From assembly GCA_963806495.1 (NCBI GenBank), contig CAWDYA010000007.1, positions 371,945 through 435,944 of the forward strand: a stretch of DNA of 64,000 nucleotides. The letters run 5' to 3'. The stretch comes from an uncultured Acidobacteriota bacterium (GTDB lineage Bacteria; Acidobacteriota; Polarisedimenticolia; JACPZX01; DASXTC01). The position numbers were made by a program, and so were the translations under genes. Shown piece by piece: positions 4,161-40,189 of the stretch. Every line of letters begins with the position of its first letter. The stretch's first letter is position 1. The notes beneath the pieces were generated by a model. That model saw only the letters and a program-made list of their open reading frames with translations. It was not told where the DNA came from and did not search any database.

Positions 4161-4229
4161 CCGCTCGAGGTTCTGCGCCTCGTTGTAGACCGGAACGACG
4201 GCGATCTCTGATCATCGGGGCTCCATGCC

Positions 4230-5240
4230 TCATACCCAGCGCAGGATGTTCTTTACCGACTTGATGTTGAGATCGCCGAGGTAGTTGATCTCGATCGCCG
4301 AGTTGCAGCAGCACTCCGGGCACCGCGCGTAGGTCATGTCCGGCAGCGACTCGAACGCCTTCTTCACCCCGTCCCGCACGCAGTTGCCCCCCTTCGTCTT
4401 GGGGAGCCCCCGCATGTCGAAGCAGGAGTAGCAGTCGCCGTTCGTGTCGATGTAGCAGAACAGCTTGCCGGAGTAGCAGCGGGGGAACTTGTCGTACGTC
4501 CCGTTGAGCCGGTACGTGTCCCGGACGAACTCGAGCGTCGCCTCGGACGCGCCGATGTGCTTGTTGCGCTTCTTCTCCTCGATCAGCCACTCGACCGTGC
4601 GGCGGTGCTCGTCCTTGTCGGGATAGAGCGGATCGAGCCGGTCGCCGGCGAGATAGTGGTCCGACAGGTTTCCGAAATCGCAGTAAAAATCGAGCTCCTC
4701 GGCCTTTCGCACCACCCACTCGACGTAGTCGAGATCGCCCTTGGTGAGGGGCGTGAAGGTCCAGACCTTGATCCCGATCTCACGGAACACCTTGATCGCC
4801 TCGAGGGCTTTCTCCCAGGCGTCCTTCATGTTGCGCTGGCGGTCGTGGACCTCCTTCGGGCCGTCCAGGCTGATGAACACCAGATCGAGCTTGCGCAATT
4901 CCTCGATCTTCCGTCTCGCCAGCAGTCCATTGGAGTTCATGCTGGTGAAGATGCCGTGGCCTTTGGCCGTGTCGATCAGAGTGCCGATGTCGGCGCGCAG
5001 CGACGCCTCGCCGCCGGTCATCACCACGCGCTCGCATCCGAGCTCGCCCAGCTCATCGATGATCCCGACGAGCTGCGGGGTGCTCAGGTCGCGCATGTTC
5101 CTCAGGGGTATGTCGCAATACTCGCACCGCTGGTTGCAGCGGTCCGTAACGGACAAGGAGACGGCGAGAGGGCGTTTGGTGCCCAGAAAATGCGTCTGGG
5201 CGATCTTGGCCCCGGTCGTGATCTCCTGAAGGAGCTTCAT
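4230..5240 (-). CDS. Radical SAM enzyme with C-terminal Cys-rich SPASM/twitch-like domain (MoaA/PqqE-like)
   Basis: 336 aa; 'SVTDRCNQRCEYC' CxxxCxxC motif near the N-terminus; C-terminal region with 9 Cys ('CYSGKLFCYIDTNGDCYSC ... CPECCC'); AGGTG Shine-Dalgarno 6 nt upstream. Confidence 0.85.
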   Translation of the reverse strand: MKLLQEITTGAKIAQTHFLGTKRPLAVSLSVTDRCNQRCEYCDIPLRNMRDLSTPQLVGIIDELGELGCERVVMTGGEASLRADIGTLIDTAKGHGIFTSMNSNGLLARRKIEELRKLDLVFISLDGPKEVHDRQRNMKDAWEKALEAIKVFREIGIKVWTFTPLTKGDLDYVEWVVRKAEELDFYCDFGNLSDHYLAGDRLDPLYPDKDEHRRTVEWLIEEKKRNKHIGASEATLEFVRDTYRLNGTYDKFPRCYSGKLFCYIDTNGDCYSCFDMRGLPKTKGGNCVRDGVKKAFESLPDMTYARCPECCCNSAIEINYLGDLNIKSVKNILRWV

Positions 5241-5342
5241 CGAGACACCTCATATCCGGAAAGCTCATCCGACGCGCCGGGGGATACACGTACCCGCTCG
5301 GGGTGGCGCCGGGATGTGCCGCAGGGGTAGGCAGTGAGTTGT

Positions 5343-5371
5343 CTTATACCCGGTAAGAGTATAACTGTCAA
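5343..5371 (-). promoter_or_regulatory. Candidate sigma70-type promoter for the radical SAM / GT2 pair
   Basis: Minus strand reads TTGACA, 17-nt spacer, TATAAG in the 140-bp gap between the upstream GT2 stop and the radical SAM start. The -35 is consensus; the -10 has G at position 6. Confidence 0.4.
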
Positions 5372-5382
5372 GGAGTTTCGCG

Positions 5383-6123
5383 CTATTGTCCGTTTTTGTT
5401 CGTATTGTCCCTGGCCCCGGGGCCACCCGGCAGCCCGGGGGGCCGCCAGAGGAAGGCGACCTTCAGGATCGTCAGCAGTATCCGGGTCCCGTGCCTGACT
5501 CTTCTGAACTTCCGGATCCCACCGAGCCGACGCTCGCGGGTCACCGGCACCTCGATGATCACCAGACCGGCCCTGGCCGCCTTGAGGATCATCTCCGACT
5601 CCACCTCGAATTCACAGAACTCCCAGCGCAGGCCGCGCACCGCCTCCCGCCGGATGACCCGGTACGACGCGTTGATGTCGCTGATCTGGGTGCCGCACAG
5701 GAGGTTGGCGAGCCCCGTCAGGACGCTGTTGGCGCGCCTGTCGATCGGGCTGATCCCTCGGTCCCGGAAGACGCCCAGGAAGCGTGAGCCGTTGAGGAAG
5801 TCGGCGCCGGTGTTCCTGAAGGCGGCCAGGAGGGACGGCAGCTCCGCCGGGACGTCCTGGCCGTCGGAATCCATCAGGACGAGCGTCTCGCCCGCAGCCT
5901 CCGCCAGGCCCGCGCGCACCGCCAGGCCCTTCCCCTCGTGGCGCCGTTTCAGCACGCGTGCGCCGGCGAGCCGCGCCTGACGGGCGGTGGCGTCCGTCGA
6001 GCCGTCGTCCACGACGATCACCTCTCCGGTCTCCCCGATGGAGCCGAGAGCGCCGAGGACGCCCCGCACCACGTCACCCACGGTCAGTTCCTCGTTGAGG
6101 GCCGGGATGATGACGGAGATCAC
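5383..6123 (-). CDS. Glycosyltransferase family 2, DPM1/ArnC-like (polyprenol-phosphate sugar synthase-like)
   Basis: 246-aa C-terminal part of ORF 5383..7644: 'ISVIIPALNEE', 'VVDDGSTD', 'MDSDGQD'. GTG start at 6123 overlaps the deacetylase stop. The N-terminal 500 aa of the track ORF is low-complexity read-through and is excluded. Confidence 0.8.
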   Translation of the reverse strand: MISVIIPALNEELTVGDVVRGVLGALGSIGETGEVIVVDDGSTDATARQARLAGARVLKRRHEGKGLAVRAGLAEAAGETLVLMDSDGQDVPAELPSLLAAFRNTGADFLNGSRFLGVFRDRGISPIDRRANSVLTGLANLLCGTQISDINASYRVIRREAVRGLRWEFCEFEVESEMILKAARAGLVIIEVPVTRERRLGGIRKFRRVRHGTRILLTILKVAFLWRPPGLPGGPGARDNTNKNGQ

Positions 6124-6968
6124 GATCCATCCCTGGCCGCGTGATGCTCGCGGATCGAGCAGAAGCGGAACTCGCGCAGGAGCCGGGAGTACTTGGCCAG
6201 CGCGCCGCGCAGACCCCAGTAGTGATACCAGGTGTGCCGCGCGGGCAGGCCCGGCACGCGCGGCTGGTCGGCATCCAGCTCCCACGGGTGCATGTACACC
6301 ACGGCCGGTCGTCCCTTTCCGTTCATCCGCCGGAGCGCGGCGGCAGTGAGCGTGTAGGGCAGGAGCCGGAAGAAGATCCCACCCGCCACCGGGATCGTCA
6401 GTCCCCCGATCCTCACGGCCGCCGGCGGGTACTCGGTCAGGCCGTCCTGGATCGGGTGGATGTCGAGACGCGCGTTCTTGACACCGTACATCCAGGTGCG
6501 CAGCGGGAAGATGCTCGAGTCCACCCGGTAGCCGCTTCGGCTCAGCGCCGGCAGGGCCCAGGGGCACCGCTCCGTGATCGACCACGAGGGCGCCCTGAAT
6601 GCCACCACCGGCTCGCCCGCGAGCTCGGACAGCACTCCCGCCGAATCCCGAAGCTGAGTCTCGAACGCCTCCGGCGTGAGGGAGTAGACGAGATCGTGGT
6701 AGTAGCTGTGGCTCGCGATCTCGTGGCCTCCTTCGCGGATGCGGCGGATCAGTCCGGGGTGCGCGGCCGCAACGCAGCCCAGGGTGAAGAAGGTCGCCGT
6801 CGAGCCGTTTTCGGCGAGCAGCGCGAGCAGGCGGTCGGTCTGCGCCTCCACACGGCTCTCCAGAGCGGACCACCGCTCGCGCGGCAGGTCGAAATCGTTG
6901 CCGTGGAACCACTCCTCGACGTCGATGGTGAGTATGTTGCGCATGCTGGCCATCCTCAGGATGGGCAT
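6120..6968 (-). CDS. Polysaccharide deacetylase (NodB-like; resembles the EPS/PEP-CTERM-locus subfamily)
   Basis: Real part of ORF 6120..7715: 'MRNILTIDVEEWFHGND', 'HEIASHSYYH'. Start could be ATG at 6968, 6953 or 6944; upstream part of the track ORF is artefact. Confidence 0.8.
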   Translation of the reverse strand: MPILRMASMRNILTIDVEEWFHGNDFDLPRERWSALESRVEAQTDRLLALLAENGSTATFFTLGCVAAAHPGLIRRIREGGHEIASHSYYHDLVYSLTPEAFETQLRDSAGVLSELAGEPVVAFRAPSWSITERCPWALPALSRSGYRVDSSIFPLRTWMYGVKNARLDIHPIQDGLTEYPPAAVRIGGLTIPVAGGIFFRLLPYTLTAAALRRMNGKGRPAVVYMHPWELDADQPRVPGLPARHTWYHYWGLRGALAKYSRLLREFRFCSIREHHAARDGS

Positions 6969-6972
6969 TATA

Positions 6973-9207
6973 ATGCCGCGACCTGACTTGCCGAGCGAGC
7001 GGAGGACGTCTGCCTTGGGATCCGAAACAACCGTAACGCCCGCAGTGTCCGGAGCGGGACCCCGGCTCCGGGTCGCACTGGCCACGGGCCTGTCCACGGG
7101 CATCCTGCTGGCGCTGATGGAGACGGCGGGCGTGCTCGCAAGCGCCGGCGCCCCCGGGGCCGCGCCCCTGGACATCCTTGTCCTCGCGACCTGGCTGGCC
7201 GTGCCGTATGTGGCGGCCCTGGGCGCGCTCGCGGCGGTCCTCGCGCTGCTCGTCCGCCCCCCGGAGGCCGCCCGGGCCCTGACGGTGGGGCTGGCCGTCG
7301 CCGTCGCTCTCGCGATGTGGCTTCGTACCCTGCTGCGGCTTGGCGAGGGGACCGCGGCGTACCCGGTGCTGGAGCTGCTCCTGGCGGGAGCGGCCTGCGC
7401 CGCCGGGGCCGCCTTCGGAATGCTGGCCGGTCGGGCCCGGCCGGGCGGGTTCCGGCGGGGGCCCTTGCTCTGGGGAGGCCTCGCCGCCCTGGCCGCGCTG
7501 GTGGCGCAGAGCGGCAACGTATCGGGCGCGTTCGGCGCGCCGGGGACACCGGCGCCGCTCGCCTGGCGGGTGGGTCTGGCCGTCGCCGTGGGTCTGGCGG
7601 TGGCGGCGGCGAGGCGCTTCCTGCCAAGGCTCGGGTCTCTGCATCCGGCGGCCGGCCGGATGGCTCGCATCGCCGGATTCGTGGCGGCGGCCGGCTGGGT
7701 CGTCTTCTGCGGCAACGGTGTTGCCCGGATGCTGTCGGTGCCGGAGGTCGCGTGGACATCGTCGCTTCAGGGGGAGGGCTCCGCATCGAGGCCCAACGTC
7801 ATCCTGATCTCAATCGACACCTTGCGGGCGGATCATGTTTCCAGCTACGGCTACAGGCGGCGCACCACGCCGGGGATCGATCAGCTCGCCGCCTCGGGGG
7901 TCCTCTTCGCGCACGCCGTCTCCACGGCGAGCTTCACGACACCGGCGCATGCCTCCATGATGACCGGCCTTTTCCCCACCAGCCACGGGGCGCAGTACCA
8001 GAGCGAGAACCCCGATGCGTTCGTCATCGCTCCGATCGCGCCTTCCGTGCCGACCCTCGCGGAGATCCTCGAGGATCAGGGGTACGACACCGCGGGGTTC
8101 GTCGCCTCGCCCATGGTGGGGCGGCAGTTCGGCTTCTCGCGCGGCTTCCGGGTTTTCGACGACCACTATGATCGCCTCAGCTCGGTGCGCGGGCAGATGT
8201 TCGCGCGCACCACCCCGTTCCGACTGCTCCGGCGGGCCGGCATGTTCGACGCGCGGGATCTCGACGCCGAGCGCAAGGCGGACGAGGTGAACGCCGCGGT
8301 CGTGCGCTGGATCGAGGCCCGACGCGGCGCGCCCGCGCCGTTTTTCCTGTTCGTGCACTACTACGACCCGCACGCGCCGTACGCCGCGCCCGGGCGTCCG
8401 ATCGAGACGGACCCTGCCCCCCGTCACGTCGCGTACGATCTCGATCTGCTGCTGCGCGGCCAGTACACGCTTTCAGTCGGCGCTCGCGACGTGGTGGTCG
8501 CGCGCTACGACGAGGAGATCGCATACACGGATCGCGCGCTGTCGCGCCTGCTCGACGCGCTCGGCCGTTCGGTTCTCGACAACAGCCTGGTCATCGTCAC
8601 CTCGGACCACGGGGAGAGCTTCGGGGAGCACGGCCACTGGGGCCACAACATCCTCCTGTACGAGGATCTCCTCGACGTGCCGTTCATCGTCCGCCCCCCC
8701 GGCGGCGCGGCTGCAGGGCGCGTCATCGACGATGTCATCGTGCAGCCGACCGACATCCTGCCGACGGTTCTCTCGTGGCTCGGCATCCGTGCTCCCGCGG
8801 GGACGCAGGGCAGGGATCTCGCCGGCCTCATCCGCGGGGACGGCGGCGACGCGGCCGGCGAGCATGCCCCCGATCCTCACGTCCGGCAGCTCGCGTTCTC
8901 CGAGCTGGCCCGCAACGTCGGCTGGGTCCGTCGCTGGGGCCCCGCGCTCGACCGCGACCTGCTTGCGGCGCGGGCCGGGCGGTGGAAGTACATCCGTTCG
9001 TCGGCGGGGGCGGAGGAGCTCTACGATCTGCAGGCGGACGCCGCCGAGTCGATCAATCTGGCTTCGGCGGACCCGGTTGCCCTGGACTCGATGCGACAGT
9101 TGATGGACGCTTGGCGGCTCACCCAGACGCGGCATCTCGAAAACGAGAACACTCCCCTCGACGAGGGGCTGCTCGAGAACCTCAGGAGCCTCGGCTATGT
9201 CCAGTAG
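6973..9207 (+). CDS. Membrane-anchored sulfatase-like hydrolase/transferase, Thr-nucleophile type (LtaS/EptA-like), paralog 1
   Basis: Real part of ORF 6739..9207. Hydrophobic multi-helix N-terminus, then 'PNVILISIDTLRADH'. The sulfatase C-x-P-x-R position reads 'FTTPAHASMMTG'. Ends 'DEGLLENLRSLGYVQ'. Confidence 0.75.
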   Translation: MPRPDLPSERRTSALGSETTVTPAVSGAGPRLRVALATGLSTGILLALMETAGVLASAGAPGAAPLDILVLATWLAVPYVAALGALAAVLALLVRPPEAARALTVGLAVAVALAMWLRTLLRLGEGTAAYPVLELLLAGAACAAGAAFGMLAGRARPGGFRRGPLLWGGLAALAALVAQSGNVSGAFGAPGTPAPLAWRVGLAVAVGLAVAAARRFLPRLGSLHPAAGRMARIAGFVAAAGWVVFCGNGVARMLSVPEVAWTSSLQGEGSASRPNVILISIDTLRADHVSSYGYRRRTTPGIDQLAASGVLFAHAVSTASFTTPAHASMMTGLFPTSHGAQYQSENPDAFVIAPIAPSVPTLAEILEDQGYDTAGFVASPMVGRQFGFSRGFRVFDDHYDRLSSVRGQMFARTTPFRLLRRAGMFDARDLDAERKADEVNAAVVRWIEARRGAPAPFFLFVHYYDPHAPYAAPGRPIETDPAPRHVAYDLDLLLRGQYTLSVGARDVVVARYDEEIAYTDRALSRLLDALGRSVLDNSLVIVTSDHGESFGEHGHWGHNILLYEDLLDVPFIVRPPGGAAAGRVIDDVIVQPTDILPTVLSWLGIRAPAGTQGRDLAGLIRGDGGDAAGEHAPDPHVRQLAFSELARNVGWVRRWGPALDRDLLAARAGRWKYIRSSAGAEELYDLQADAAESINLASADPVALDSMRQLMDAWRLTQTRHLENENTPLDEGLLENLRSLGYVQ

Positions 9208-9360
9208 AAACTGCCCGACCATGGTGCGCCTGGCCGGACGGGGCGACCAGTGTGGAAGGCCCGGCCGGCGCGTTGGAAGGCCGCCGGCCGCCGGGGCAGG
9301 CGCATGCCGGCCGGGGCCGGCGCCCGGGGCATCCCGAGGTCTTCGCCGGGCGGCGCCAAG

Positions 9361-11583
9361 ATGAACGAAGTCAAGGGGTTGTCGGATAGCATGGAGCGCG
9401 GCGAGCGCACGGTCGTCGGGCAGTTTCAGCGAGTCACTTCCGGGTTGGTGGTGGCCACCGCCTCGGGTCTGCTCCTCGGTCTGATGGAGACGGCCGGGAT
9501 CCTCTCGCAGCACGGCGCTCCATCGGGATCGTCGATCGACATCCTCGTGACCGCCACCTGGCTGGCGTTGCCGTATGCCGCGACGATCGCGATGGCCGCC
9601 CTGATGGTCGCTTTCGCGGTTCCGGCGCCCGGTCTGTCGCGGGGGCTGGCGGCCGGGATCGGGGGCGGGGTGGTCCTGCTGCTCTGGATCAGGACGCTGG
9701 CGAACCTGGGAGAGGGGAGCGCGGCGTATCCCGTCCTGGAGCTGCTCGTCGTCGGCGTGGCCTGCGCCGGTGGCATGGCGGCCGGGATGCTGGCGGCGAG
9801 ACCGGCCCCGGGGGGAGGCCGGACGCTGATGATCGGGGCCGGTATGGCGGGGCTGGCGGCCCTGGTGGCGTCGAGCCGGAACATCCCCGGTCCTTTCGGC
9901 CGACCCGGGCCGCCCGCAGGCTTCGGCGGCCGGCTGCTCTGGGCGGTGATCGTTGCGGCGGCTGTGGCAGCCGTGATCGTGATGGCACGCGCCCTCGCCT
10001 CACGCGGGGAGGGCGCCCGGTGGCTCGTGCGGGGCCTTGCGGCCGCGAGCGCGGTCGGGTGGGTCATCTACTGCGGATCAGGTTTCGTCCACATGCTGGG
10101 TTGGTCGGGGTCCGAGCCTCGTCTGCCGGAGGCCGGCGCCGTCGAGCCGGGACGGCCCAACGTCATCCTGATATCGATCGATACCCTGCGTGCCGACCAT
10201 CTGTCGTGCTACGGCTACGGGCGGCCGACCACGCCCGGCATCGACGGGTTCGCGGCGTCCGCCGTGCTGTACCGCAACGCCTCGTCCACCGCGAGCTTCA
10301 CCCTCCCCGCGCACGCGTCCATGATGACCGGACAGTTCCCCTCGAGCCACGGCGCGACGTATCAGAACCGAGATCCGGGAAGCTTCACGCTGCGGGGCAT
10401 CCGTCCCGGCTCGCCGATGCTGGCGGAGATCCTGCGCGAGCGCGGATACGACACGGCCGCCTTCGTCAGCGGGCCGCTGCTGAGCCGGCACTTCGGCTTC
10501 GACAGGGGGTTCCGCATCTACGATGATCGGTACGACCGACTCCAGAGCGCGCGCGAGCGACTGTTCGCGCGGTCCTTCCTGTTCCGGGTCCTCTACCGCC
10601 TCGGCGTGTTCTCGGACCGCGATCTCGACGCGCAGCGCACGGCGGGGGAGGTGAACCCGCTCATGGACGACTGGCTCGCAAAGCGCCGGGGATCCACGAG
10701 ACCGTTCTTCCTCTTCGTCCACTACTGGGATCCCCACGGGCCGTACGCCCCGCCGGCCCCGCTCGACGAGCGGCCGGACGGGACTCCTATCCGGGTCGAC
10801 TACGACATGGACCGGCTGCTGATCGGCGACTACACGTACACGCCGGAGGCGCTTGCGGATCTGATCACGCTCTACGACGGCGAGATCCAGTGGGTCGATC
10901 GGCATGTCGCCGCGCTGCTCGACCGGCTGCGCGCCAACAGGCTGCTCGACGGCGCCCTGGTGATCCTGACCGCAGACCATGGCGAGAGCTTCGGTGAGCA
11001 CGATCACTGGGAGCACAGCCGGGTGCTGTACGAGGATGTGCTGCACGTGCCGTTCATCATGAAGCTGCCCGGGGAACGTGACGGCGGCCGCGTGGTCGAG
11101 GACGTCGTCGCGCAGCCCACGGACATCCTTCCCACGGTGCTCGCCGAGGCGGGGATTCAGACGCCGCCAGAGGTCGAGGGGCGGAACCTGCTCGCCTTCC
11201 TCGAGCCGGACGGTGACGCAGGTGCGTCCGGGCAGGCCGAGTCGCACGTCCGGGGGCGCGGGCTGGCGTTTGCGGAGCTCGATCGCAACGTGGACTGGCC
11301 CGAGCGATGGGGCGCCCGGTTCGACCGGGACCTGGTCTCGGCGCGGACCCTCCGTTACAAGTACATCCACTCCTCCACCGGCGAGGAGGAGCTGTACGAT
11401 CTGCGGACGGATCCGGGCGAGCTGACCAATCTGGCGTCCGTGGATCCGTCGGCGGCGTCAGCGATGCGACAGCTCGTCGAGGCATGGCGCAAGGCACTCT
11501 CGATCGCGTCGCCGGATGAGCGACAGGAGCAGATCGATGAAGGGTTGCTGGAGAATCTCAGGAGCCTCGGCTATGTCCAGTGA
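9361..11583 (+). CDS. Membrane-anchored sulfatase-like hydrolase/transferase, Thr-nucleophile type (LtaS/EptA-like), paralog 2
   Basis: Real part of ORF 9250..11583, start 'MNEVKG'. Same architecture as paralog 1 ('PNVILISIDTLRADH', 'FTLPAHASMMTG') and identical C-terminal tail 'DEGLLENLRSLGYVQ'. Confidence 0.75.
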   Translation: MNEVKGLSDSMERGERTVVGQFQRVTSGLVVATASGLLLGLMETAGILSQHGAPSGSSIDILVTATWLALPYAATIAMAALMVAFAVPAPGLSRGLAAGIGGGVVLLLWIRTLANLGEGSAAYPVLELLVVGVACAGGMAAGMLAARPAPGGGRTLMIGAGMAGLAALVASSRNIPGPFGRPGPPAGFGGRLLWAVIVAAAVAAVIVMARALASRGEGARWLVRGLAAASAVGWVIYCGSGFVHMLGWSGSEPRLPEAGAVEPGRPNVILISIDTLRADHLSCYGYGRPTTPGIDGFAASAVLYRNASSTASFTLPAHASMMTGQFPSSHGATYQNRDPGSFTLRGIRPGSPMLAEILRERGYDTAAFVSGPLLSRHFGFDRGFRIYDDRYDRLQSARERLFARSFLFRVLYRLGVFSDRDLDAQRTAGEVNPLMDDWLAKRRGSTRPFFLFVHYWDPHGPYAPPAPLDERPDGTPIRVDYDMDRLLIGDYTYTPEALADLITLYDGEIQWVDRHVAALLDRLRANRLLDGALVILTADHGESFGEHDHWEHSRVLYEDVLHVPFIMKLPGERDGGRVVEDVVAQPTDILPTVLAEAGIQTPPEVEGRNLLAFLEPDGDAGASGQAESHVRGRGLAFAELDRNVDWPERWGARFDRDLVSARTLRYKYIHSSTGEEELYDLRTDPGELTNLASVDPSAASAMRQLVEAWRKALSIASPDERQEQIDEGLLENLRSLGYVQ

Positions 11584-11589
11584 GACGCC

Positions 11590-12754
11590 GTGGGCCATCT
11601 GAAGCGGTTCGCGCTCAACGTCGCGGTGCTGGGCGCCGCCAGCCTCGTGGCCCTGCTCTTCGCGGAAGGGGTGCTCCGGTTCGCCGCCCACAAGGTGCTG
11701 CACGGGGGGGAGTGGGCGACCGCGGGCCAGATCTTCCGCAAGATCGACCCACCGGTCGGTTTCAGTCTTCAGCCGGGCTCCACCCAGATCCTCGTGACCG
11801 GAGGCGCCTACACGTCGCGTGCCACCATCAACTCAGCCGGCATGCGGGATGTCGAGCATGCGCTCGAGCCGGCCCCCGGCGTCAAGCGGATCCTCGTGCT
11901 CGGCGACTCGTTCATGTTCGGGCAGGGTGTCGAGATGGAAGACACTCTGCCGCGCCGGCTGGCGGGGCTCCTGCCGGGGGTGGAGGTGATCAACACCGGG
12001 ACGCCCGGCTACGATCTGGGCCAGTACTACCTGCTGTACGAGGACAGGGCCTACCGGTACAAACCCGACCTGGTGCTCGTCGGCTTCTTCATCAACGATC
12101 TGGCTCGTGCGCGTGAGCTCGACGTGACGTACGGCGAGGACGGGTTGCCCGTCTCGTACCAGCGGAGCGAGGAGATGATAGCGAAGGATCTACGCCGGGG
12201 CCCCGCGCGGGCTCACCGGGGCGGTCTCGTCGTGGTTCAGGGATCATTCGCTGCTCTACGTCCTGGTGCGCAAGCGGCTGGACAATCTGATGGCGGGCCG
12301 GCGCCGCCCCGCAGCGGAATCAACGGACGATCGCGCGGCCGACACGCCGTATCTGTCGGTGTTTCGCAAGCCCGATGCGGACGGGGGAGGGGCCGCGGAC
12401 TGGGCCCGGGCCTGGCGGATCCTCGACGCGCTCAAGCGCAGCGTCGAGACACACGGGGCGCGTTTTGCCGTCATCATGGTCCCCGCTCCGTTTCAGACAT
12501 CGGACGCGGCGTTCGGTACGTGGGTCGAGTGGGCGGGTGCCGAAGGGGAGGACCTGTCACGCAGCGAGCCGCAGGAGATGATGAAGTCCTGGTGCGCGCG
12601 CTCCGGCACGCCCTGCCTGGATCTGCTTCCCGTCTTCGAGAAGGGGGATCGCGACACGCTCTACTTCCCGTACGACATGCACTGGACCGCCAGGGGGCAC
12701 GCAATGGCGGCACGCGCCGTTGCGTCCTTTCTCGAGGCGCGCGGTCTGCCGTGA
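11590..12754 (+). CDS. SGNH/GDSL-family hydrolase (frameshifted)
   Basis: N-terminal part in ORF 11590..12765 ('LGDSFMFGQGV' block I); C-terminal part in ORF 12266..12754 ('YDMHWTARGH' block V). The frames switch between about 12182 and 12240 in a GC-rich run. Confidence 0.65.
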
Positions 12755-14737
12755 TCAGAAGGTGATCGTGTATCGCGCGTGGTACGAGAAGTGCAGCCGG
12801 CTCTGCGGCACCGTGGCGGCCGGCGCGGGCGAGAGCATCCGGATGTCGAAGCTGCCGGGCGTGACCACGAACTCGCGTCGTTTCTTTCCCTCGACGTAGC
12901 AGAACTGCCCGTCGTCGAAGACCAGGCCGACCCCCTGATCGCCGGTGTTGTCGATGACGAGTCGCGGCAGTCCGAGTCCCGGGACGACGACGCGGGAGAT
13001 CTCCGGCAGGGGCGGCGGTGGCTCGGGCGCCCTGGCCTTCTTTTTCTTCTTTCCCTTGGCCGGTGGCGCGGGGGGAGCCGCGAGCGGATCGATCGGCTTG
13101 ATCACGCGATCCGTCAGGCGCAGGCGTCCGCCGTCGTCTACCATGAGCGAGACGATCCGGACGCCATCGGGGACCTGCTGGTGAAGGATCGCCTTGCCGG
13201 CCCGCCGCAGCATCGAGACGGCGTCGGCGAGATGATCCTGTCTGACGCCCAGGGCTGCGGCGAAACCGGGAGCGGCCGCCGGGTCGGTCAGGTAGGACAG
13301 CTCGGGCGCATCGACATAGCTTTCGAACGGGTGGTCCGTGGGCAGACCCTTCACGCTCGCCTGATCGAGCGGGTCCCCCTCGGCCGGGATGAACAGGCCG
13401 ATGACGAGCCGCGATTCCCCCGCGTTCTTGCGCAACGGGTAGACCTTTGTCGTCTCGGTCACCTGCGCGTCCTCGACCCGCATGAGCTGAAGCGTCTCCG
13501 AGTCGAACAGATACGGGGGCAGGCCGTCGAAGGCCATGCCGATGGCGGAGCGCGGCTGCTCACGCTCGACGGGATACGTATCGACGCGCCCGCTGACGCT
13601 CCCCGGCAGACAGCAGTGTGCAGGGTCGAACGTCAGGCTCGCGTTGTCCAGCACCGTGAGCGTGTCCGGCAAATCGTGCACCGTCCGCCAGGCCGGCAGG
13701 AGGGCGTCATCGAAGGCGTCCGCGTCCTTTTCGATGAGGACGTTGTAGGCGCCCGGATCGAGCTCCACTTCGAGGGGTGTCTGACCGATGTAGTAGTCGT
13801 ACTCGGTCGCCTCGCGAAGCTGGGTGGCCGCCGGTGAGACGTAGACCGAGCAGCCCTCGGGCACCGAGGTCACCCAGACCCGATCGCGCGCCGGGTCGGT
13901 CGGCCGCGCCGGCGGACCCTCCACCTGGGACAGAGGCACGGCGACGACGTCCTCCGCCACGAGCGGCGCGACGGGCGCCACCGATGCGGCCTGGTTCACG
14001 GCGCTGATCACCTCATCGGTGGCCCCCGCTTCGCGAAGCGCGAGCGCCTCCTCGAGTGTCAGCGGCGCTGCCATGCCGCGCGTGGCGACGGTCGTCGCCA
14101 CCTCGGACGGCTCCTCCCCGGACTCCAGCATCCCGATCACCTCGTCGGCGGTCATCGGCTCGTGCGGCGTGCCGGTGGCCCCGGGCGCCACGGTCGCGCC
14201 GCCACGTGCGAGTGCGAGCACGATTTCGTCGGGCAACCCCTTCTCTCTCTGGGCCAGGAGAGTGTCGATGTCGGGGACCTCGTCGAGCCCCTCGCCGGCC
14301 ACCCGTGCCACAATCTCTTCCACGGGGGTCCCCTTGCGGTGCATCCTCAGCACCTGCTTCACCGACAGTGCTCCGGTGGCGGTCTCCGACCCCGTCTCCG
14401 CCTCCGGTGGCGGCGCGGGCGGTGCGGCCGCGGGCTCCATCGTCCCGGCCATCCGCACGATGAGCTCGTTGGAGGCTCCCACCTTCTTCAGCCGGATCAG
14501 CTCGTCCACCGTCAGATCGAATGTGGCGCCAGTCCGCTTGATGCGGGAGATCAGCACGGACGAGGAGACCCCCTCGCGAAGCATCTGGATCACCTGGGGG
14601 AGCGTCAGGGAGATCTCTCCTTCGGGAGCGGCCTTGGGCAGGCCCTGCGGTCCCGCGACCAGGGCGCAGGGAGCCAGCAGGAGGATCGCCAGCATGGATG
14701 CGAAGAGAACCTGCGTGCGGGGAATCCGTGCCGCCAT
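12755..14737 (-). CDS. Secreted PEGA-domain protein with N-terminal tandem helical repeats
   Basis: Real part of ORF 12755..15646: signal-like 'MAARIPRTQVLFASMLAILLLAPCALVAG', three ~45-aa repeats of the 'LTVDELIRLKKVGASNELI' type, PEGA-like 'VWVTSVPEGCSVYVSP...GQTPLEV', poly-Lys 'KGKKKKKARAP'; GAGGAGG Shine-Dalgarno upstream. Confidence 0.6.
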   Translation of the reverse strand: MAARIPRTQVLFASMLAILLLAPCALVAGPQGLPKAAPEGEISLTLPQVIQMLREGVSSSVLISRIKRTGATFDLTVDELIRLKKVGASNELIVRMAGTMEPAAAPPAPPPEAETGSETATGALSVKQVLRMHRKGTPVEEIVARVAGEGLDEVPDIDTLLAQREKGLPDEIVLALARGGATVAPGATGTPHEPMTADEVIGMLESGEEPSEVATTVATRGMAAPLTLEEALALREAGATDEVISAVNQAASVAPVAPLVAEDVVAVPLSQVEGPPARPTDPARDRVWVTSVPEGCSVYVSPAATQLREATEYDYYIGQTPLEVELDPGAYNVLIEKDADAFDDALLPAWRTVHDLPDTLTVLDNASLTFDPAHCCLPGSVSGRVDTYPVEREQPRSAIGMAFDGLPPYLFDSETLQLMRVEDAQVTETTKVYPLRKNAGESRLVIGLFIPAEGDPLDQASVKGLPTDHPFESYVDAPELSYLTDPAAAPGFAAALGVRQDHLADAVSMLRRAGKAILHQQVPDGVRIVSLMVDDGGRLRLTDRVIKPIDPLAAPPAPPAKGKKKKKARAPEPPPPLPEISRVVVPGLGLPRLVIDNTGDQGVGLVFDDGQFCYVEGKKRREFVVTPGSFDIRMLSPAPAATVPQSRLHFSYHARYTITF

Positions 14738-14820
14738 CGAACGCCTCCTCGGTGTGTCCCCGTGAACGGCCGGATCGCCGCTGCGGGCCGGTGCATTATA
14801 AAGGATGCCGTGCCCGCCGG

Positions 14821-19285: not shown

Positions 19286-19528
19286 GTGGCAGGGCAGGGC
19301 TCCCGGGGAAACGATACGCGCGGGATGCGCGCGCACGCGAGAATGCTAACACAGCGCCACGACGCCGCCCAACGGATAGTGCGGCAAACCCTGTGATATA
19401 CTCGACGCCGTTCTGGAGGCCCGATGCCGAGCCCCCGGACCGCAGTCCCACCGGTCCGCGGCCCGCCGTCGCTTGTCATCAACCGGTCGAACCGGACCAC
19501 CTCGACATCACGGGAGCAGGCTGATCTC

Positions 19529-20827: not shown

Positions 20828-20841
20828 CCGGGGGCGCCGCC

Positions 20842-21939: not shown

Positions 21940-21964
21940 CTCGCGTCACCTCTATGCAGGCCTG

Positions 21965-24816: not shown

Positions 24817-26861
24817 TCATTCGATGTAGCCGAGCGACTTCAGGGTGTCGAGAAGTTCCTCGTCCTTCTTGTCCCGATCGCTCGATGCGGTTCCGAGCGA
24901 ATTCACCAGGAAAGTCGTCGAGCCGGCCTGCGAGAAGCCTCAGCAGCTCGGGCTCGGCCGCGGACAAATCCCTCGTCTCGCCCGGATCCTCCTCGAGATC
25001 GTACAACTCGTACGCGTCGGGCGCCGAGGGGCCGAGAACCGTCCTCTCTCTGAAGCCCAGCAGTTCACTCGTCTTGATGTCGTCGGCCCCGAGAGCCGGA
25101 TCGATGCGCGTGGCCCTGGCATGGTCGTGGGGCACCAGGATCAGCTTGTACCGCCCGAGCCGGATCGAGCGCAGCTTGCCCGCCTCGCCCGGGATCGTGG
25201 GAAGGGGGTTCTGCGACAGATAGGACAGGTCCGACTCGCTGAAGATCTCGCGGTTGCCTATGTCACGGGAGGGCGTGCTCGCCTCCCGGAGAGAGCACCG
25301 CCGCGAGGCTCATTCCGTCGCGCTCCGACGCATATCCGATATCGAACATGTCGAGCAACGTCGGCGTGACGTCGATGAGGCTAACGGGCTCATCTATCTT
25401 GCGCCCGTCGGTCTGGCCCGGCAGATGGAACATCAGGGGGATATGCAGACTCTGCTGGTAGACACGGTCGCCGTGGGAGAAGAAGTACCCGTGCTCTCCG
25501 AGGCTCTCTCCGTGATCGGCCGTGACCACGAGAACTGTTCGCCCGCCGGCAGGCCCGTCGGTCGCGGCATCGACCAACCGTTTCACCTGATCGTCGAGAA
25601 AACGCACTTCCCCCGCGTACAGGGAGTCGAGGCGCTCCACCTCCTCGGCGGGCATCGTGTTGTGATGAATCACGTCGCCTATCGTGAGCTTCCCAGATTC
25701 GATCTCGTCGTAAACCGTGAGCGGCTGTCGGGGCGACGGGTCGACCTCATCGCGGTACGGCTCGGGCGGCTCATAGGTCCAGTGCGGGTCCAAGTAGTGG
25801 ACCCAGAGAAAGAACGGCCGGCCCTCGACCGCGTGAAGCATCTCGATCGCGCGGTCGGTGGTGACGTCGGCGACCTCGGACTGCGGGCGGGTGGTGTCAA
25901 AGCGATTGAGAAAGAAGGTCACGGCACGGGGGTGGAGCCTGGCGAGCAGGTCGAGAAGCACCAGGTGCTTGACCTGGCCGCGCAGGCCCAGCCTCCCCTG
26001 GTAGGTGTCGAAGCCCTGCGAGATGCCGCTGCCGCGATCGATGAGGCCGTTTGTCAGGACGGCCGCCGTGACCCACCCACGGCTCCGGAACTCCTCGGCC
26101 AGCGTCCGGTTCGACCAGGCGAGTGTCGAGAACAGGCTCTCGAAACCGTGACGATAAGTGTAGTCACCGGTCATCAGGGAGGAGATCGCCTGAGGCGTCT
26201 TGGGGATCGGCGTGGACGTGTCGAGGAACGCGAACGAACGAGAGGCCAGGGCGTCGAGGCCGGGCGTGCGCGATTTCTCGAGCCCGGGCGGGAGCTCGCC
26301 CTGCCCCCTGAAAGCGCCCAGGGCGTCGGCGCGCAGCGTATCGATCGTGATCAGCAGCACGCTGCGGGCCCCCTCGGGAGGCGTCGGCGCGCCGAGCGCC
26401 ATCCGCGCGCTCAGAAAGGCGGGCACCGAGATCGTCACGACGATCAGCAGTGAGGCGGCGACCCAGGAGATCCGAAGAGGAGCGGTACGCCGGGGCGCGA
26501 GCGCCGCGGTCGCGAGCAGGACGAGCGTCACCACGCCGAGCATCGTCCAGGTCGCTCCCGGGATCCCGAGAACCGGCTGGAGCGCCCGCGATCCTCCCCA
26601 CGCGAGCAACAGCGCCATCAGCGGGATCAGGGCGGTCGGGCCGACACCGAGGCGGCGGGCGAGCAGGGTCCCAGCGAGGAAACCGGCGACGGCGCCGTAC
26701 ACGGCGGCCAGGGCGATCCCCCACCAGGCGAACGTCAGCGAGTCGGCGCGGCTGTCATACAGCACGGGCGACCATCTGGCGAGCCAGATCGCCGCTTCGA
26801 CCGCGCCGAACGCGGCCATGACGAGGCAGGCCGCGGCCGCCGTGAGAAGGGGACGCTTCAC
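24817..26861 (-). CDS. Membrane-anchored sulfatase-like hydrolase/transferase, paralog 3 (two frameshifts)
   Basis: N-terminal 532 aa in ORF 25263..26861 ('LLITIDTLRADALG', 'HYLDPH', 'VTADHGE'). Continues in the frame of ORF 23978..25135 ('RYKLILVP...YELYDLEEDPGE'), then a third frame ending 'DTLKSLGYIE'. Frame changes near 25266 and 24905. Confidence 0.6.
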
Positions 26862-37216: not shown

Positions 37217-40189
37217 ATGTCGAGGCTCCGTATCCTGCTGATGGTGGCGGTCTTGGCGACCGCCGCCTACCTCGTTTCGAGCGTCACGCGGGTCCCTTCC
37301 GATCAGATCGCGGTGCGGGAGAGCCTGCTGTCCGGCGGGCCGCCGACCGTGGTGGGGGCGGGATGGCGGTTCGTGCCCCGGGGGCTCTACCGCCTCACGC
37401 GATATCCGGCGGGGCCGGCGTCGTTCGCGTTCGGGCAGGACGAGCCGTTCCAGCTCGTCACGCCCCAGGGTGCGAAGGTCGTCGGGGCCGGGACGCTGAG
37501 CTACCGGGTCGAGCCGGAGGATGCGGCGGCCCTGCACGCGCGCTGTGGCGGCCGTCTCGAGACCTGGCTCCTGGATCGCGTCCGCGCGGCGCTCACCGAG
37601 GTGCTGTCGCGGCCCGGGCTCTCTCCGCTTACGGCGTCGAAGATCCCGGACGTGGAGGCCGCAGGCCTGAAGATCCTCGAGGACTCGGCGGGCGGCGACG
37701 GGCTGCGGATCGACGGGATGCGTCTGGACCGACTCGGCTACGAAGGGGCCGCGGTCGCCGCCGCCCCGCGCGCCACCGTGCGGCGCAGGATGATCTGGTT
37801 CGCTGTCGACTCGTTCGACTGGAAGATCGCACGCCCTCTCATCGAGGCGGGCCGGATGCCGAACCTCAAGCGACTGATGGACGAGGGGGCCTGGGGAAAT
37901 CTGCGGACGATCGTGCCGATCCTCTCGCCCGTGGTCTGGACCTCGGCGGCCACCGGCAAGCGACCGGAGAAGCACGGCATCATCGACTTCGTCGCCAGCG
38001 ATCCGAAGACCGGGGCGCTGGTGCCCGTCACCAGCTCGCTGCGAAAGGCGCGCGCGTTCTGGAACATCCTCAGCGACGGCGGCGTCTCGGTGGGCGTGGT
38101 GGCGTGGTGGGCGAGCTTTCCGGCGGAGAAGGTGGACGGATTCATCGCAACCGACCGGATTCGTACCAGCTGTTCAAGAACCAGGTCACGAAGGAGGAGT
38201 CGTCCGACGACCCGTTCAAGACGTATCCGGCCGATCTGTACCCGACGATCTCCCCGCTGATCACGGCGCCGGCCTCGATCACCGAGAAAGACCTCTCACG
38301 TTTCATCGACATGAAGCGCTACGCCTCGCGATTCTCGGCCGACGACGAGGACCGCGTGCACGAGTTCGCCACCGCGGTGGCGGCATCGAGGACCTACACA
38401 GCCATCGCCAAGAAGCTGTTCGAACAGCGTCCGACCGACCTCAGGGTGGTCTATTTCGAGGGGCCGGACGAGGCCTCGCACCTGTTCATGCCGTTCGTCC
38501 CGCCGCCCGTCAGCACCGTCGATGCGAGCAAGGCCGCGTGGTTCGGGGGCGTCGTGGACGCGTACTACGTCTACCAGGACGAGCTGATCGGTCAGCTGCT
38601 CGACGCGTTCGCCGACGACGACACCACGATCCTCGTCTCCTCCGATCACGGTTTCAAGATTCGGAGACGACCGGCCGCAGACCGAGTCCCGCATCAGCCA
38701 CGGCAAGGCCGCCGACTGGCACTCTCCCGACGGGATGATCGTTCTCGCCGGCAGGGACATCAAGAAGGGCACCCGCATCCTCAACGCCAACGTGCTCGAC
38801 ATCGTCCCGACGCTTCTCTACCTGTACGGGATGCCGGTCGCCGAGGACATGGACGGCAAACCGTTGACGATGGCGCTGACCGAGGACTTTCTCGCGGCTC
38901 ACGAGCCCTCGCAGGTGGCGACGTATGAAACCGGCGAGGCGGAACCGGCGCCGGAGCTCGACTACGCCTCGGAGGAGGGTAAGGAGGCGATCGAGAAGCT
39001 GCGCTCGCTCGGCTACATCGAGCAGGATCAGCCCTCGGCGCATCTCAACCAGGGCGCCGTCTACATGCAGACCGGCGAGTACGACAAGGCGATCGAGGGG
39101 TTCAGGACGGCGCTGCAGAAGATGGACGACCCGGACGTGCGCCTCGCCCTCGCCCGCGCGTACCGGCTGAGCCACAAGCCCGAGCAGGCCGCCGAGCAGC
39201 TCGACATCCTGATGAAGCGCGGCTGGAAGGAGGCGCGGGTGTACAACGAGATGTCGCTGCTGCGGCGGGATCTGAGGGACTACAAGGGAGCCGAGGCCCT
39301 GCTGAAGCGCGCGCTTTCGTCCGACCCGAAGTACGACGAGGCGCAGCTCAACATCGGCCGGTTGTACGCCGAGGAGTCGCGGTGGGACGACGCGCTGGCC
39401 GCCTTCCAGCGCGCCCTGGAGCTGGACCCCAGCTCGGGCGAGACCTACAACCAGATCGGCGTCGTGCTCAAGAAGCTGGGCCGGACCGATGAGGCGATCG
39501 CCTCGCTGGAGAAGGCGATCAAGGTCGCGCCCGATATCACGGGGCCCTACAACAACCTCGGCATCATCTACCGGGAGACCGGGCGGATGGACAAGGCACT
39601 CGAAGTGCTCGAGCTCGGCACGACGATGGCCCCCAAGAATGCGATGCTTCGCAACAGCCTGGCCTCGCTTTACTACGCTCAGGGCGACGTGGACAAGGCG
39701 GTCGCGCAGCTCGAAGCCGCCGTGCAGGGCGAGCCGGACCACATCGGCTCGCTGTCCAACCTGGTCAGTATCAACATGGCCAGGCACAACCCGGCCGACG
39801 CGGAGAAGTACCTGCGGCGCCTGCTGGAGTTGCAGCCGGGAAACGACCAGCTGCAGCTCTCGCTTGCGCTGGTGCTCTCGGACCAGAAGAAGTTCGACGA
39901 GTCGCGGCGGATGCTCAACGTCCTGCTCGCGAAGAACGCGCGCGACCCCGCGGCGCTGATGATCCTCGGGGAGGTGGAGCTCGCAAGCGGCAACCCCGCC
40001 GAGGGGGCGAAACGGTTCGAGCAGTCGAGCGCGATCGACACGAAGAACCCGCGCGTATGGAACGGCCTGGCGAAGTGCTACCTGGCGCTGGGGCGCAAGG
40101 ACGACGCCCGGCAGGCGATGCGGCGGTCGCTCCAGGCGGACCCGAAGCAGCCCGAGGTGGGGAGGAAGCTCGCCGAGCTCGGGGGCTAG
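37217..40189 (+). CDS. Alkaline-phosphatase-superfamily (type I phosphodiesterase-like) protein fused to C-terminal TPR repeats (two frameshifts)
   Basis: Three track ORFs: 37217..38260 ('WFAVDSFDW', 'PNLKRLMDEGAWGNL'), the middle of 36904..38928 ('ILVSSDHGF') and 38735..40189 (TPR repeats). Frame changes near 38155 and 38660; the first and last segments share a frame. 'LRSLGYIEQ' sits at the catalytic/TPR boundary. Confidence 0.6.

Follow-up and report, generated by a model that had tools for sequence, protein, structure and literature searches.

Tandem membrane-anchored sulfatase-like proteins with a predicted threonine nucleophile and a widely conserved C-terminal LGY tail in an acidobacterial genome

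Introduction

The arylsulfatase/phosphonate monoester hydrolase (AS/PMH) scaffold serves as a model for studying catalytic promiscuity. The references taken for this clade were BT1596 (5G2T), RlPMH (2VQR), ArPMH (4UPH), choline sulfatase (6FNY) and EfAS (9KOQ). The S1 sulfatases of SulfAtlas have Cys (78.9%) or Ser (21.1%) as nucleophile, and the Arg of the same motif (Arg55) is 99% conserved (PMC5066984). The EfAS mutants R65A and K324A showed minimal residual activity (PMC12421950), and choline sulfatase, PMH and dimeric arylsulfatases oligomerise through C-terminal extensions (PMC5870055). Here, a pair of adjacent genes from an uncultured Acidobacteriota bacterium, both annotated as sulfatases, was compared with these enzymes, with the LtaS, EptA/MCR-1, EptC and OpgB proteins, with PbgA/YejM (LapC) and with NPPs.

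Results

Tandem sulfatase-like genes

The window, that is the whole stretch of 64,000 nucleotides analysed here, carries the pair with the following features.

6973 (ATG) to 9207, plus strand: gene 1, a 744-aa membrane-anchored Thr-type sulfatase-like protein, intact ORF
7045 to 7734, plus strand: gene 1 N-terminal domain with seven predicted membrane helices (aa 25–254), N-in/C-out, from the AF2 model
7780 to 9144, plus strand: gene 1 periplasmic catalytic domain (aa 270–724), sulfatase/PMH fold
7936 to 7938, plus strand: codon of gene 1 Thr322 in the motif T-T-P-A-H, placed at the formylglycine position by alignment with 5g2t, 3b5q and 7oz8 and predicted to act as the catalytic nucleophile
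9160 to 9204, plus strand: gene 1 tail module DEGLLENLRSLGYVQ (aa 730–744), a short helix (731–739) after a variable linker
9250 to 11583, plus strand: gene 2, a 777-aa paralog of gene 1, intact ORF
10300 to 10302, plus strand: codon of gene 2 Thr351
11536 to 11580, plus strand: gene 2 tail module, protein-identical to that of gene 1

The two genes had been described in an earlier note as tandem paralogs with a common architecture and an identical C-terminus, and this description held, both ORFs being intact and their products sharing 52% identity over 731 residues and the same last 15 residues. The public call of gene 2 (P0003) starts at 9304, comprises 759 aa and is identical to gene 2 over its length. 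Both products matched the Pfam family PF00884 (Sulfatase; gathering cut-off 25), with 168.9 bits (E 2e-49) for gene 1 and 145.7 bits (E 2e-42) for gene 2, and both also matched SGSH_C. The AF2 model of gene 1 had a mean pLDDT of 85 and a pTM of 0.84. By sequence and fold, the pair groups with formylglycine sulfatases and phosphonate monoester hydrolases, having the alpha/beta fold with a C-terminal subdomain and the Asp and Asp-(Asn/His) metal ligands of S1 sulfatases.

Active site

The nucleophile-region strings quoted in the earlier note, FTTPAHASMMTG and FTLPAHASMMTG, are both present in the sequence. HMMER alignments to solved sulfatases placed the Thr on the formylglycine Ser/Cys, the point at which that note had said its reading could fail, and the His (His326 in gene 1) on the motif Arg, again as it had proposed. 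Thr322 and Thr351 therefore stand where S1 sulfatases have the Cys or Ser of the C/S-x-P/A-x-R motif. Further along, the sulfate-binding Lys located 13 residues after the Asp-His pair is replaced by His558 in gene 1, and the second Lys motif, G-K-x-H, is absent after G-Y-x-T (GYDTAGFV), leaving gene 1 with neither the motif Arg nor the two sulfate-binding Lys. The metal ligands Asp282, Asp545 and His546 and the histidine of PH-x-P (His467) are kept. Among 58 divergent relatives, T322, D545, H546 and H467 were conserved in all 58, D282 and H558 in 57 and H326 in 46; among metagenome ORFs bearing the tail, just ~56% have His at the +4 position. Because Thr occupies the nucleophile position, the Arg and one Lys have become His and there is no second Lys motif, genes 1 and 2 would not be expected to act as sulfatases, a function that this residue pattern makes very unlikely (PMC5066984; PMC12421950), in agreement with the earlier note.

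Membrane anchor

Seven membrane helices are predicted in each of the two products. In gene 1, Arg and Lys residues are concentrated in the N-terminus and at the ends predicted to be cytoplasmic (segments 2–3, 4–5 and 6–7), and two of the three periplasmic loops are devoid of Arg/Lys, a distribution consistent with an N-in, C-out orientation. The domain gave no Pfam match at E up to 10, and an exhaustive phmmer search of 1.84 billion representative proteins returned only three other matches, all sulfatase-like and from the closer homolog set; it is therefore neither a known nor a widespread module. Anchors vary among the relatives, most of which have a lipobox or a single helix rather than seven helices. 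Conservation across the family is limited to the catalytic domain and the tail, behind an anchor that may be 7 TM, 1 TM or a lipoprotein. The named relatives are from Acidobacteriota and other MAGs.

The LGY tail

Two further genes of the window carry the tail.

24817 to 26861, minus strand: third, divergent paralog, ~671 aa when rebuilt, ~30% identical to gene 2, ending DTLKSLGYIE
37217 to 40189, plus strand: fourth tail-bearing protein, ~992 aa when rebuilt, with Band_7, an NPP-like PF01663 domain, LRSLGY (nt 38999–39016) and TPR repeats

The third paralog reads K-T-P-Q-A-I in the nucleophile region, retaining the Thr and the tail with Ile at the +4 position. The tails of both genes are present as the earlier note had read them, but neither gene forms a continuous ORF, two frameshifts being needed in each. 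A 347-aa piece of the fourth gene (P0128, carrying PF01145 and PF01663) is already truncated in the public protein collection, where it comes from one NCBI/ENA contig of 456,094 bp, a length that matches the contig of P0003, and the frameshift breaks therefore sit in the deposited assembly. A second candidate tail in the fourth protein, LDRLGY after Band_7, is conserved in P0121 and is more likely part of Band_7.

The tail consensus spans 15 residues, D-x-E-x-x-E-R-L-R-[SA]-L-G-Y-[VIL]-[EQ]. Genes 1 and 2 are also identical in DNA over the 25 nt that precede the stop, with synonymous differences just upstream and an overall nucleotide identity of ~69% (comparing the portions from the catalytic domain to the stop). 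In six-frame translation of the window, the strict motif L[RKEQ][SAGT]LGY occurred four times against 0.02 expected from Markov-1 random sequences, and all four occurrences end an alkaline-phosphatase-superfamily catalytic domain.

The claim that four proteins within 64 kb share this tail thus applied to all four, but the tail is not confined to them, being found in ~95% of 240 homologs (115/120 sulfatase-like and 115/120 NPP-like). It stands either two residues before the stop or before a flexible Gly/Ser/Ala-rich linker followed by TPR repeats. In an unbiased scan of metagenome DNA for the tail followed by a stop, 114 of the 120 matches belonged to the Thr-type sulfatase-like or the NPP-like clade and none was a Cys/Ser-x-Pro-x-Arg sulfatase. 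A CysD-like ORF in locus L058 that ends in KLRSLGYM presumably shows that family's own GY-type C-terminus, not the tail module. Far from being peculiar to the window, the tail is carried almost throughout two large uncharacterised clades with otherwise unrelated catalytic domains. The first of these, which is unnamed and is defined in the present analysis, combines a nucleophile-position Thr with a His that replaces the Lys following Asp-His and with an L-x-x-L-G-Y that closes the catalytic unit, all of which are found in genes 1 and 2.

The tail is better conserved than the catalytic domains bearing it. In the gene 1 model its pLDDT was moderate (62–77 over residues 721–740 and 61 for the last four residues); for tail and strap of the NPP-like model it was 86–92. 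Neither the tail alone nor segments comprising tail and linker matched any Pfam or NCBIfam family at E up to 10; a likeness of L-x-x-LGY to helix 1 of the PG_binding_1 domain was accordingly left unsupported. No model in these collections and no paper found describes the tail: literature searches on LGY-type tail motifs gave unrelated matches only, and those on Thr-nucleophile sulfatases with TPR and on PEP-CTERM with sulfatase gave nothing on the Thr-type LGY-tailed clade.

Gene neighbourhood

On either side of the pair lie the following genes.

3354 to 6965, minus strand: divergently transcribed block of GT2, radical SAM, GT2 and polysaccharide deacetylase with DUF3473 (Pfam, NCBIfam)
11590 to 12754, plus strand: SGNH/GDSL- and AlgX-like gene downstream of gene 2, with one frameshift near 12200

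The second GT2 of the divergent block is AglJ/dolichyl-P-hexose-transferase-like, and TIGR03006 scored 271.5 bits in the block against an NCBIfam cut-off of 276.2. The block adjoins close homologs of the pair, in identical order in locus L084 and with the deacetylase in L083, while L001 and L085 have related gene sets that include PMT_2 GT-C enzymes; in L001 a GDSL gene likewise follows the homolog. Across ~80 wider loci the neighbours were heterogeneous (TPR/GT-C-like proteins in 13 loci, GT2 in 7), and neighbour clustering revealed no universal partner gene. The neighbourhood links are strong only within the close clade. The radical SAM protein had its best NCBIfam matches in the PTO1314, AhbC and NirJ families and is unlikely to be a sulfatase maturase, none being among its best 25 matches. 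Those of L001 and L085 are of a different, B12-binding type, and radical SAM was not among the neighbour clusters recurring in at least two of the ~80 loci.

Discussion

Proposed function

With moderate confidence, genes 1 and 2 can be regarded as extracytoplasmic Thr-nucleophile metallo-phosphoesterases on an AS/PMH scaffold that are tied to a glycan-modification cluster. The enzymes would be anchored in the inner membrane with the catalytic domain on the periplasmic side, and the chemistry of the scaffold would be rewired by Thr in place of formylglycine and His in place of the Arg and Lys that hold sulfate. The metal would activate the Thr322 hydroxyl for attack on a phosphate (mono- or di-)ester, giving a covalent phospho-threonine intermediate to be resolved by water or, less probably, by an acceptor hydroxyl, with His326, His558 and His467 possibly positioning the substrate or protonating the leaving group. 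Since only the catalytic domain and the tail are conserved and the anchor is variable, we infer that the enzymes hydrolyse a phosphorylated glycan or glycoconjugate outside the cytoplasm, a reading favoured over a lipid-headgroup transferase of the LtaS/EptA type. The GT2/radical-SAM/GT2/deacetylase genes next to the pair probably make its substrate in this lineage.

The transferase reading holds that the 7-TM domain binds a membrane lipid donor and that Thr322 relays the donor's phospho-headgroup, be it phosphoglycerol, phosphoethanolamine or a polyprenyl-phosphate-linked sugar phosphate, to a glycan or lipid of the envelope, as in LtaS/EptA/OpgB. It is suggested by the combination of a polytopic membrane domain with a periplasmic PF00884 domain bearing a Thr nucleophile, by the clade-conserved E50, L75, Y79 and W116 near the predicted periplasmic ends of TM1–3, and by neighbours that include a polyprenyl-phosphate-sugar-synthase-like GT2 and a deacetylase, together with the PMT_2 GT-C enzymes of L001 and L085. 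The earlier note had likened the pair to LtaS or phosphoethanolamine transferases, and for the Thr and the membrane anchor the comparison stands; the resemblance ends there, with NCBIfam scores for EptA, MCR and LtaS far below the cut-offs (EptA, 54.7 against 561 bits; P_eth_NH2_trans, 40.9 against 500; LtaS, 15.8 against 970). A lipid-donor mechanism as the core of the family also fits poorly with a 7-TM domain present in only three other proteins, most relatives having a lipobox or a single helix, and we consider this transferase unlikely.

Less probable still is a PbgA/YejM-like binding or sensor protein, non-catalytic or weakly catalytic, whose alkaline-phosphatase-like domain would bind an envelope lipid or glycan and signal via partners, the tail or TPR repeats serving as protein–protein contacts. 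Against this, even distant relatives show no variation in the nucleophile or in any metal ligand, as would be expected if the enzyme is active; PbgA shares only 18–19% sequence identity, and the presence of several paralogs in tandem suits substrate diversification better than sensing. A true sulfatase, working via Thr directly or via Thr that the neighbouring radical SAM enzyme has oxidised to a keto residue (anSME-like), would draw on the radical SAM gene in the adjacent conserved block and on the retained scaffold and several sulfatase signature residues, but it is highly improbable given the missing Arg and both missing Lys, the maturase-free matches of the radical SAM and its absence from recurrent neighbours, and the fact that formylglycine cannot arise from Thr, which is not known to be modified in this way (PMC5066984).

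Role of the tail

The tail would consist of a variable strap and an amphipathic helix closing the catalytic unit. By analogy with choline sulfatase and PMHs, whose C-terminal extensions pack in the manner proposed here, it most likely packs on the catalytic core of its own or a neighbouring subunit. A purely intramolecular structural role explains poorly why one tail is common to two otherwise unrelated catalytic domains. A more speculative idea, which we rate as rather improbable, is that the tail is an autonomous, portable docking signal recruiting Thr-type sulfatase-like and NPP-like enzymes to a common partner in multi-enzyme envelope-modification assemblies. Such a partner would most plausibly be TPR arrays, acting in cis where fused and in trans via paralogs like the fourth protein, and the assemblies would occur in Acidobacteriota, Planctomycetota, Myxococcota and related phyla. 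A short, well-conserved tail in two distinct clades points to an element, not previously described, by which envelope enzymes are assembled or stabilised.

Implications

In Acidobacteriota, Planctomycetota, Myxococcota, Gemmatimonadota and other phyla, the Thr-type clade accounts for many of the proteins that carry the name "sulfatase" or "arylsulfatase A-like enzyme", and a true sulfatase function is very unlikely for them. They can be told from real sulfatases by a simple signature of Thr at the formylglycine position, His replacing the Lys that follows Asp-His, and the LGY tail, with consequences for the sulfatase counts behind ecological inference. The clade also represents a natural exchange of nucleophile, from formylglycine to Thr, accompanied by Arg/Lys to His changes within the arylsulfatase/PMH scaffold, and the GT2/radical-SAM/GT2/deacetylase neighbourhood offers a concrete starting place for a substrate search.

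Comparison with known systems

Compared with S1 sulfatases and PMHs, the pair has Thr for formylglycine and the clade more widely has His or another residue for the motif Arg; His also replaces the Lys that follows Asp-His, there is no G-K-x-H Lys motif, and membrane or lipid anchors and the LGY tail are added. Like LtaS, EptA, MCR-1, EptC and OpgB, genes 1 and 2 combine a Thr nucleophile and a single Asp/Asp-His metal site (D282/D545/H546) in a periplasmic domain with a predicted N-terminal polytopic membrane domain, although no homology of this domain to the five-helix membrane domain needed for the lipid donor was detected. PbgA/YejM (LapC), which gave 21.8–22 bits in NCBIfam where the cut-off is 825, is without the LGY tail and has a membrane domain of another kind. 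For the PF01663-type tail-bearing clade, the closest fold is that of NPPs (ENPP1/3/6 and Xanthomonas NPP; Foldseek E 2e-14), and its invariant residues D41, S80, D265, H269, D323 and H324 appear to resemble the NPP-type two-metal site. This clade differs from NPPs, with which it is 11–17% identical, in having Ser instead of Thr as nucleophile and in its lipoprotein or Band_7 N-terminus, its LGY tail and its TPR fusions.

Paired sulfatase-like genes and their tail

Two intact, adjacent genes for sulfatase-like paralogs with the same C-terminus, as claimed in the earlier note, were recovered from the window as unbroken ORFs whose proteins share 52% identity across 731 residues and both end in DEGLLENLRSLGYVQ. 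Both proteins exceed the Pfam threshold for PF00884 (Sulfatase), both also match SGSH_C, and the nucleophile motifs named earlier, FTTPAHASMMTG and FTLPAHASMMTG, were both found in the translations. From catalytic domain to stop, the portions compared have ~69% nucleotide identity; the final 25 nt 5' of the stop are the same DNA in both genes, with synonymous differences immediately 5' of this stretch. The features discussed here are as follows.

3354-6965 (-): GT2, radical SAM, GT2 and polysaccharide deacetylase with DUF3473, upstream of and divergent from gene 1
6973..9207 (+): gene 1, unbroken ORF, 744 aa
7936-7938 (+): Thr322 codon of gene 1
9250..11583 (+): gene 2, unbroken ORF, 777 aa, adjoining gene 1 (start at 9304 in the public call, P0003)
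10300-10302 (+): Thr351 codon of gene 2
11590-12754 (+): SGNH/AlgX-like gene, downstream of gene 2
16071-17852: urocanase
17756-19345: histidine ammonia-lyase
20842-23881 (-): GT4 and glutamine-dependent asparagine-synthase-like gene, beside a dienelactone hydrolase and the third paralog
24817..26861 (-): third paralog
37217..40189 (+): fourth tail-bearing gene

Distribution and specificity of the tail

The strict motif L[RKEQ][SAGT]LGY occurred four times in the six-frame translation of the window, against 0.02 expected from Markov-1 random sequences, and all four occurrences lie where the tail had first been placed, in the four tail-bearing proteins. The tail is not peculiar to the window but a family hallmark common to two clades. 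In the first, 115 of the top 120 gene 1 homologs had [LIVMF]-x-x-[LIVM]-G-Y, either 1-3 residues before the C-terminus or at a TPR-repeat junction. For the second, the fourth protein was rebuilt as Band_7, PF01663, LRSLGY and TPR, and its catalytic domain was used as query; among 120 homologs, the motif was terminal in 52 and preceded TPR repeats in 63. This PF01663-type domain has an NPP-like fold with invariant D41, S80, D265, H269, D323 and H324, which by our reading resemble the two-metal site of NPPs, with Ser as the nucleophile. Apart from the tail, an S-D-H-G region (E 5e-5) is all that it has in common with the sulfatase-like domain. Terminal and internal forms of both clades (four groups in all) share the consensus D-x-[EG]-x-x-E-[RK]-L-R-[SA]-L-G-Y-[VIL]-[EQ]. 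The stop falls exactly two residues past G-Y in 42/54 and 49/52 of the terminal forms of the two clades, and internal forms continue into a Gly/Ser/Ala-rich linker and then TPR repeats.

Across 1.25 Mb of related loci, the motif was found in 115 of 130 sulfatase-like ORFs, while only 5 of 4447 non-sulfatase-like six-frame ORFs ended in it. Metagenome contigs scanned at DNA level, in an unbiased way, for L-R-[SA]-L-G-Y-x-[EQ]-stop gave, among 120 matches listed, 88 sulfatase-like and 26 PF01663-type ORFs, with six unclassified (three of them contig-edge fragments). Every tail-bearing sulfatase-like ORF of this set with a readable motif had a Thr nucleophile, bar two for which the automatic pattern match was Ser or Asn; none had C/S-x-P-x-R, and the +4 residue was His in ~56%. 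Searches of the tail against Pfam and NCBIfam found no model covering it, and no mention of it was found in the literature searched.

A few similar strings occur elsewhere. At locus L195, a 95-aa ORF (~1160-1470, +), possibly a ribbon-helix-helix protein, ends in EEIAESLRALGYLE and is the sole complete match outside the alkaline phosphatase superfamily, among the 120 metagenome matches listed, that is not obviously spurious; its tail may be due to chance or mark a third tail carrier. A 293-aa ORF at locus L058 (6133-7012, -), which we take from its sequence to be CysD/PAPS-reductase-like, ends in '...MMQKLRSLGYM'; CysD proteins have a similar GY-aromatic motif at the C-terminus, so this likeness is probably a coincidence. 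The fourth protein holds a second L-x-R-L-G-Y string, 'MRLDRLGYEG' (aa 170-177, window ~37700-37750), conserved as 'LRFERLGYEG' in a 59%-identical homolog (P0121, aa 187-192). This string closes the Band_7 (SPFH) domain, directly ahead of the PDE domain, and is more likely part of Band_7 than a second tail module.

Possible role of the tail

In the AlphaFold2 model of gene 1, the tail forms a short helix (731-739) of moderate confidence (pLDDT 62-77 at 721-740, and 61 for the final four residues), and in the alignment the linker ahead of it varies in both sequence and length. For P0143, an NPP-like homolog with a deeper alignment, the model has an extended strap and helix at pLDDT 86-92 and suggests that these are docked on the core. 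In choline sulfatase, PMHs and dimeric arylsulfatases, the closest solved relatives, conserved C-terminal extensions build oligomers (PMC5870055), and we therefore favour a tail that would act as a strap-and-helix packed on the catalytic core, its own or a neighbor's. That the tail is common to two unrelated cores and always lies at the TPR-array boundary raises the possibility of a portable docking signal, which we regard as unlikely.

Membrane anchor and topology

Residues 25-254 of gene 1 form seven helices in the model. Arg and Lys are concentrated in the N-terminus and at the helix ends predicted to be cytoplasmic (segments 2-3, 4-5 and 6-7), and both are missing from two of three periplasmic loops, a distribution consistent with a predicted N-in, C-out orientation that would place the catalytic domain in the periplasm. 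The membrane domain drew no match from Pfam at a cut-off as loose as E 10, and of 1.84 billion representatives searched exhaustively with phmmer, only three other proteins, each sulfatase-like, were found to contain it. Among the 120 best homologs listed, those with a long N-terminal region are a minority, and a lipobox or one helix is present in many; with anchors so variable and the membrane domain so rare, the conserved unit is the catalytic domain plus tail and the anchor is interchangeable. The lipobox Cys25 is nearly invariant in short NPP-like tail-bearing proteins (P0143 and its relatives; alignment A3), and many TPR-fused sulfatase-like proteins (P0023, P0024, P0031, P0039) also contain a lipobox, so a large share of both clades are likely lipoproteins.

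Interrupted genes

The third and fourth genes carry the tails ascribed to them but not continuous ORFs, each requiring two frameshifts. The SGNH gene requires one, giving five apparent frameshifts in three genes over 64 kb. A truncated 347-aa fragment of the fourth gene (P0128) is already in the public collection, from one 456,094-bp NCBI/ENA contig, a length that matches the contig of P0003, so the breaks belong to the deposited assembly, a 456-kb MAG contig. The two frameshift sites examined had no obvious homopolymers, and the frameshifts may be assembly indel errors or mark true pseudogenes.

Genomic context

In the divergent block upstream of gene 1, AglJ, dolichyl-phosphate hexose transferase and PpgS are the nearest matches of the second GT2. 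On TIGR03006 (cut-off 276.2 bits), the deacetylase reaches 271.5 bits. The deacetylase is XrtA-type, and the radical SAM is SPASM-like, with the PTO1314 family as its top, sub-cut-off NCBIfam match. The related locus L084 has the same order of GT2, radical SAM, GT2, deacetylase and sulfatase-like gene (two copies), and L083 is syntenic with the window as far as the urocanase and histidine ammonia-lyase genes; the block (L084 1388-4918; L083 314-1138) and the sulfatase-like gene(s) are divergently oriented in every case. The third paralog adjoins the GT4 and the asparagine-synthase-like gene, paralogs of which are common in exopolysaccharide loci. In more distant homolog loci (L001, L085), the neighbors are PMT_2 GT-C enzymes, B12-type radical SAMs, GT2s, methyltransferases, a GDSL protein, more sulfatase-like paralogs and PF01663 proteins. 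Over ~80 wider loci, TPR proteins (13 loci) and GT2s (7 loci) were the commonest neighbors, the remaining context being heterogeneous. These neighbors favor a function in modifying envelope glycans or glycoconjugates, without singling out a substrate.

Downstream of the SGNH gene, 12755-14700 (-) encodes a ~640-aa protein with internal ~60-aa repeats (e.g. 'VLISRIKRTGATFDLTVDELIRLKKVGASNELIV') and a Lys-rich stretch ('KGKKKKKARAPEPPPP') that had no match in Pfam or NCBIfam; a 677-aa ORF in the same syntenic position of L083 likewise lacks a Pfam match. A STAND/AAA_16-type NTPase with a C-terminal IclR-like HTH (14821-16122, -), found in L083 too, separates the envelope cluster from the histidine-utilization genes. 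L001 has four sulfatase-like genes interleaved with methyltransferase and GDSL genes (10001-22160), and in L085 two PF01663 genes adjoin a sulfatase-like gene (13144-17303), so that paralog expansion appears to have occurred in several lineages beyond the window. The neighboring TPR-repeat proteins of the 13 loci (among them L030 13731-15242; L032 11449-18670; L023 15963-22343; L001 12168-14270) are 500-880 aa long, many with hydrophobic N-terminal regions, and some are suspected, by their N-terminal sequences, to be GT-C (PMT_2/TMTC-like) and TPR fusions; one representative gave only TPR repeats in Pfam.

Active site and place in the superfamily

In HMMER alignments to solved sulfatases (5g2t, 3b5q, 7oz8), the formylglycine Ser/Cys coincides with the leading Thr of T-T-P-A-H, in agreement with the earlier note, the sulfatase motif Arg with His326, and the Lys 13 residues past the Asp-His metal ligands with His558; AGFV follows G-Y-x-T, versus G-K-x-H in sulfatase signature II. 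In 58 divergent relatives, T322, D545, H546 and H467 were each kept in all 58, D282 and H558 each in 57, H338 in 54, H553 in 53 and H326 in 46. By analogy with those alkaline phosphatase superfamily members that use Thr or Ser, the kept metal site and the invariance of Thr point to a phosphoryl-transfer reaction. Among 4058 S1 sulfatases in SulfAtlas, the nucleophile is only Cys (78.9%) or Ser (21.1%), the motif position is Arg in 99%, and formylglycine is not obtainable from Thr (PMC5066984); R65A and K324A mutants of an Enterococcus arylsulfatase had minimal residual activity only (PMC12421950). With Thr as nucleophile and both Arg and Lys replaced, genes 1 and 2 are thus, in line with the note, very unlikely to encode sulfatases.

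The two genes are ordinary members of a large, widespread clade that is apparently undescribed so far. Less ordinary are the 15-residue tail held in common with an NPP-like clade and the rewiring of an arylsulfatase/PMH scaffold, with formylglycine replaced by Thr, and Arg and Lys by His. The analogy with LtaS and EptA drawn earlier was not supported, the EptA, MCR and LtaS models of NCBIfam giving 15-55 bits versus cut-offs of 500-1250; the top NCBIfam matches, all sub-threshold, were arylsulfatase, PehA and choline sulfatase. All PDB sequence matches were sulfatases or PMHs, and the gene 1 model (pLDDT 85, pTM 0.84) had PMHs, SpAS1, BT1596 and choline sulfatase as its best Foldseek matches. 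By sequence and fold, genes 1 and 2 are a Thr-bearing offshoot within the arylsulfatase/PMH clade rather than relatives of LtaS or EptA.
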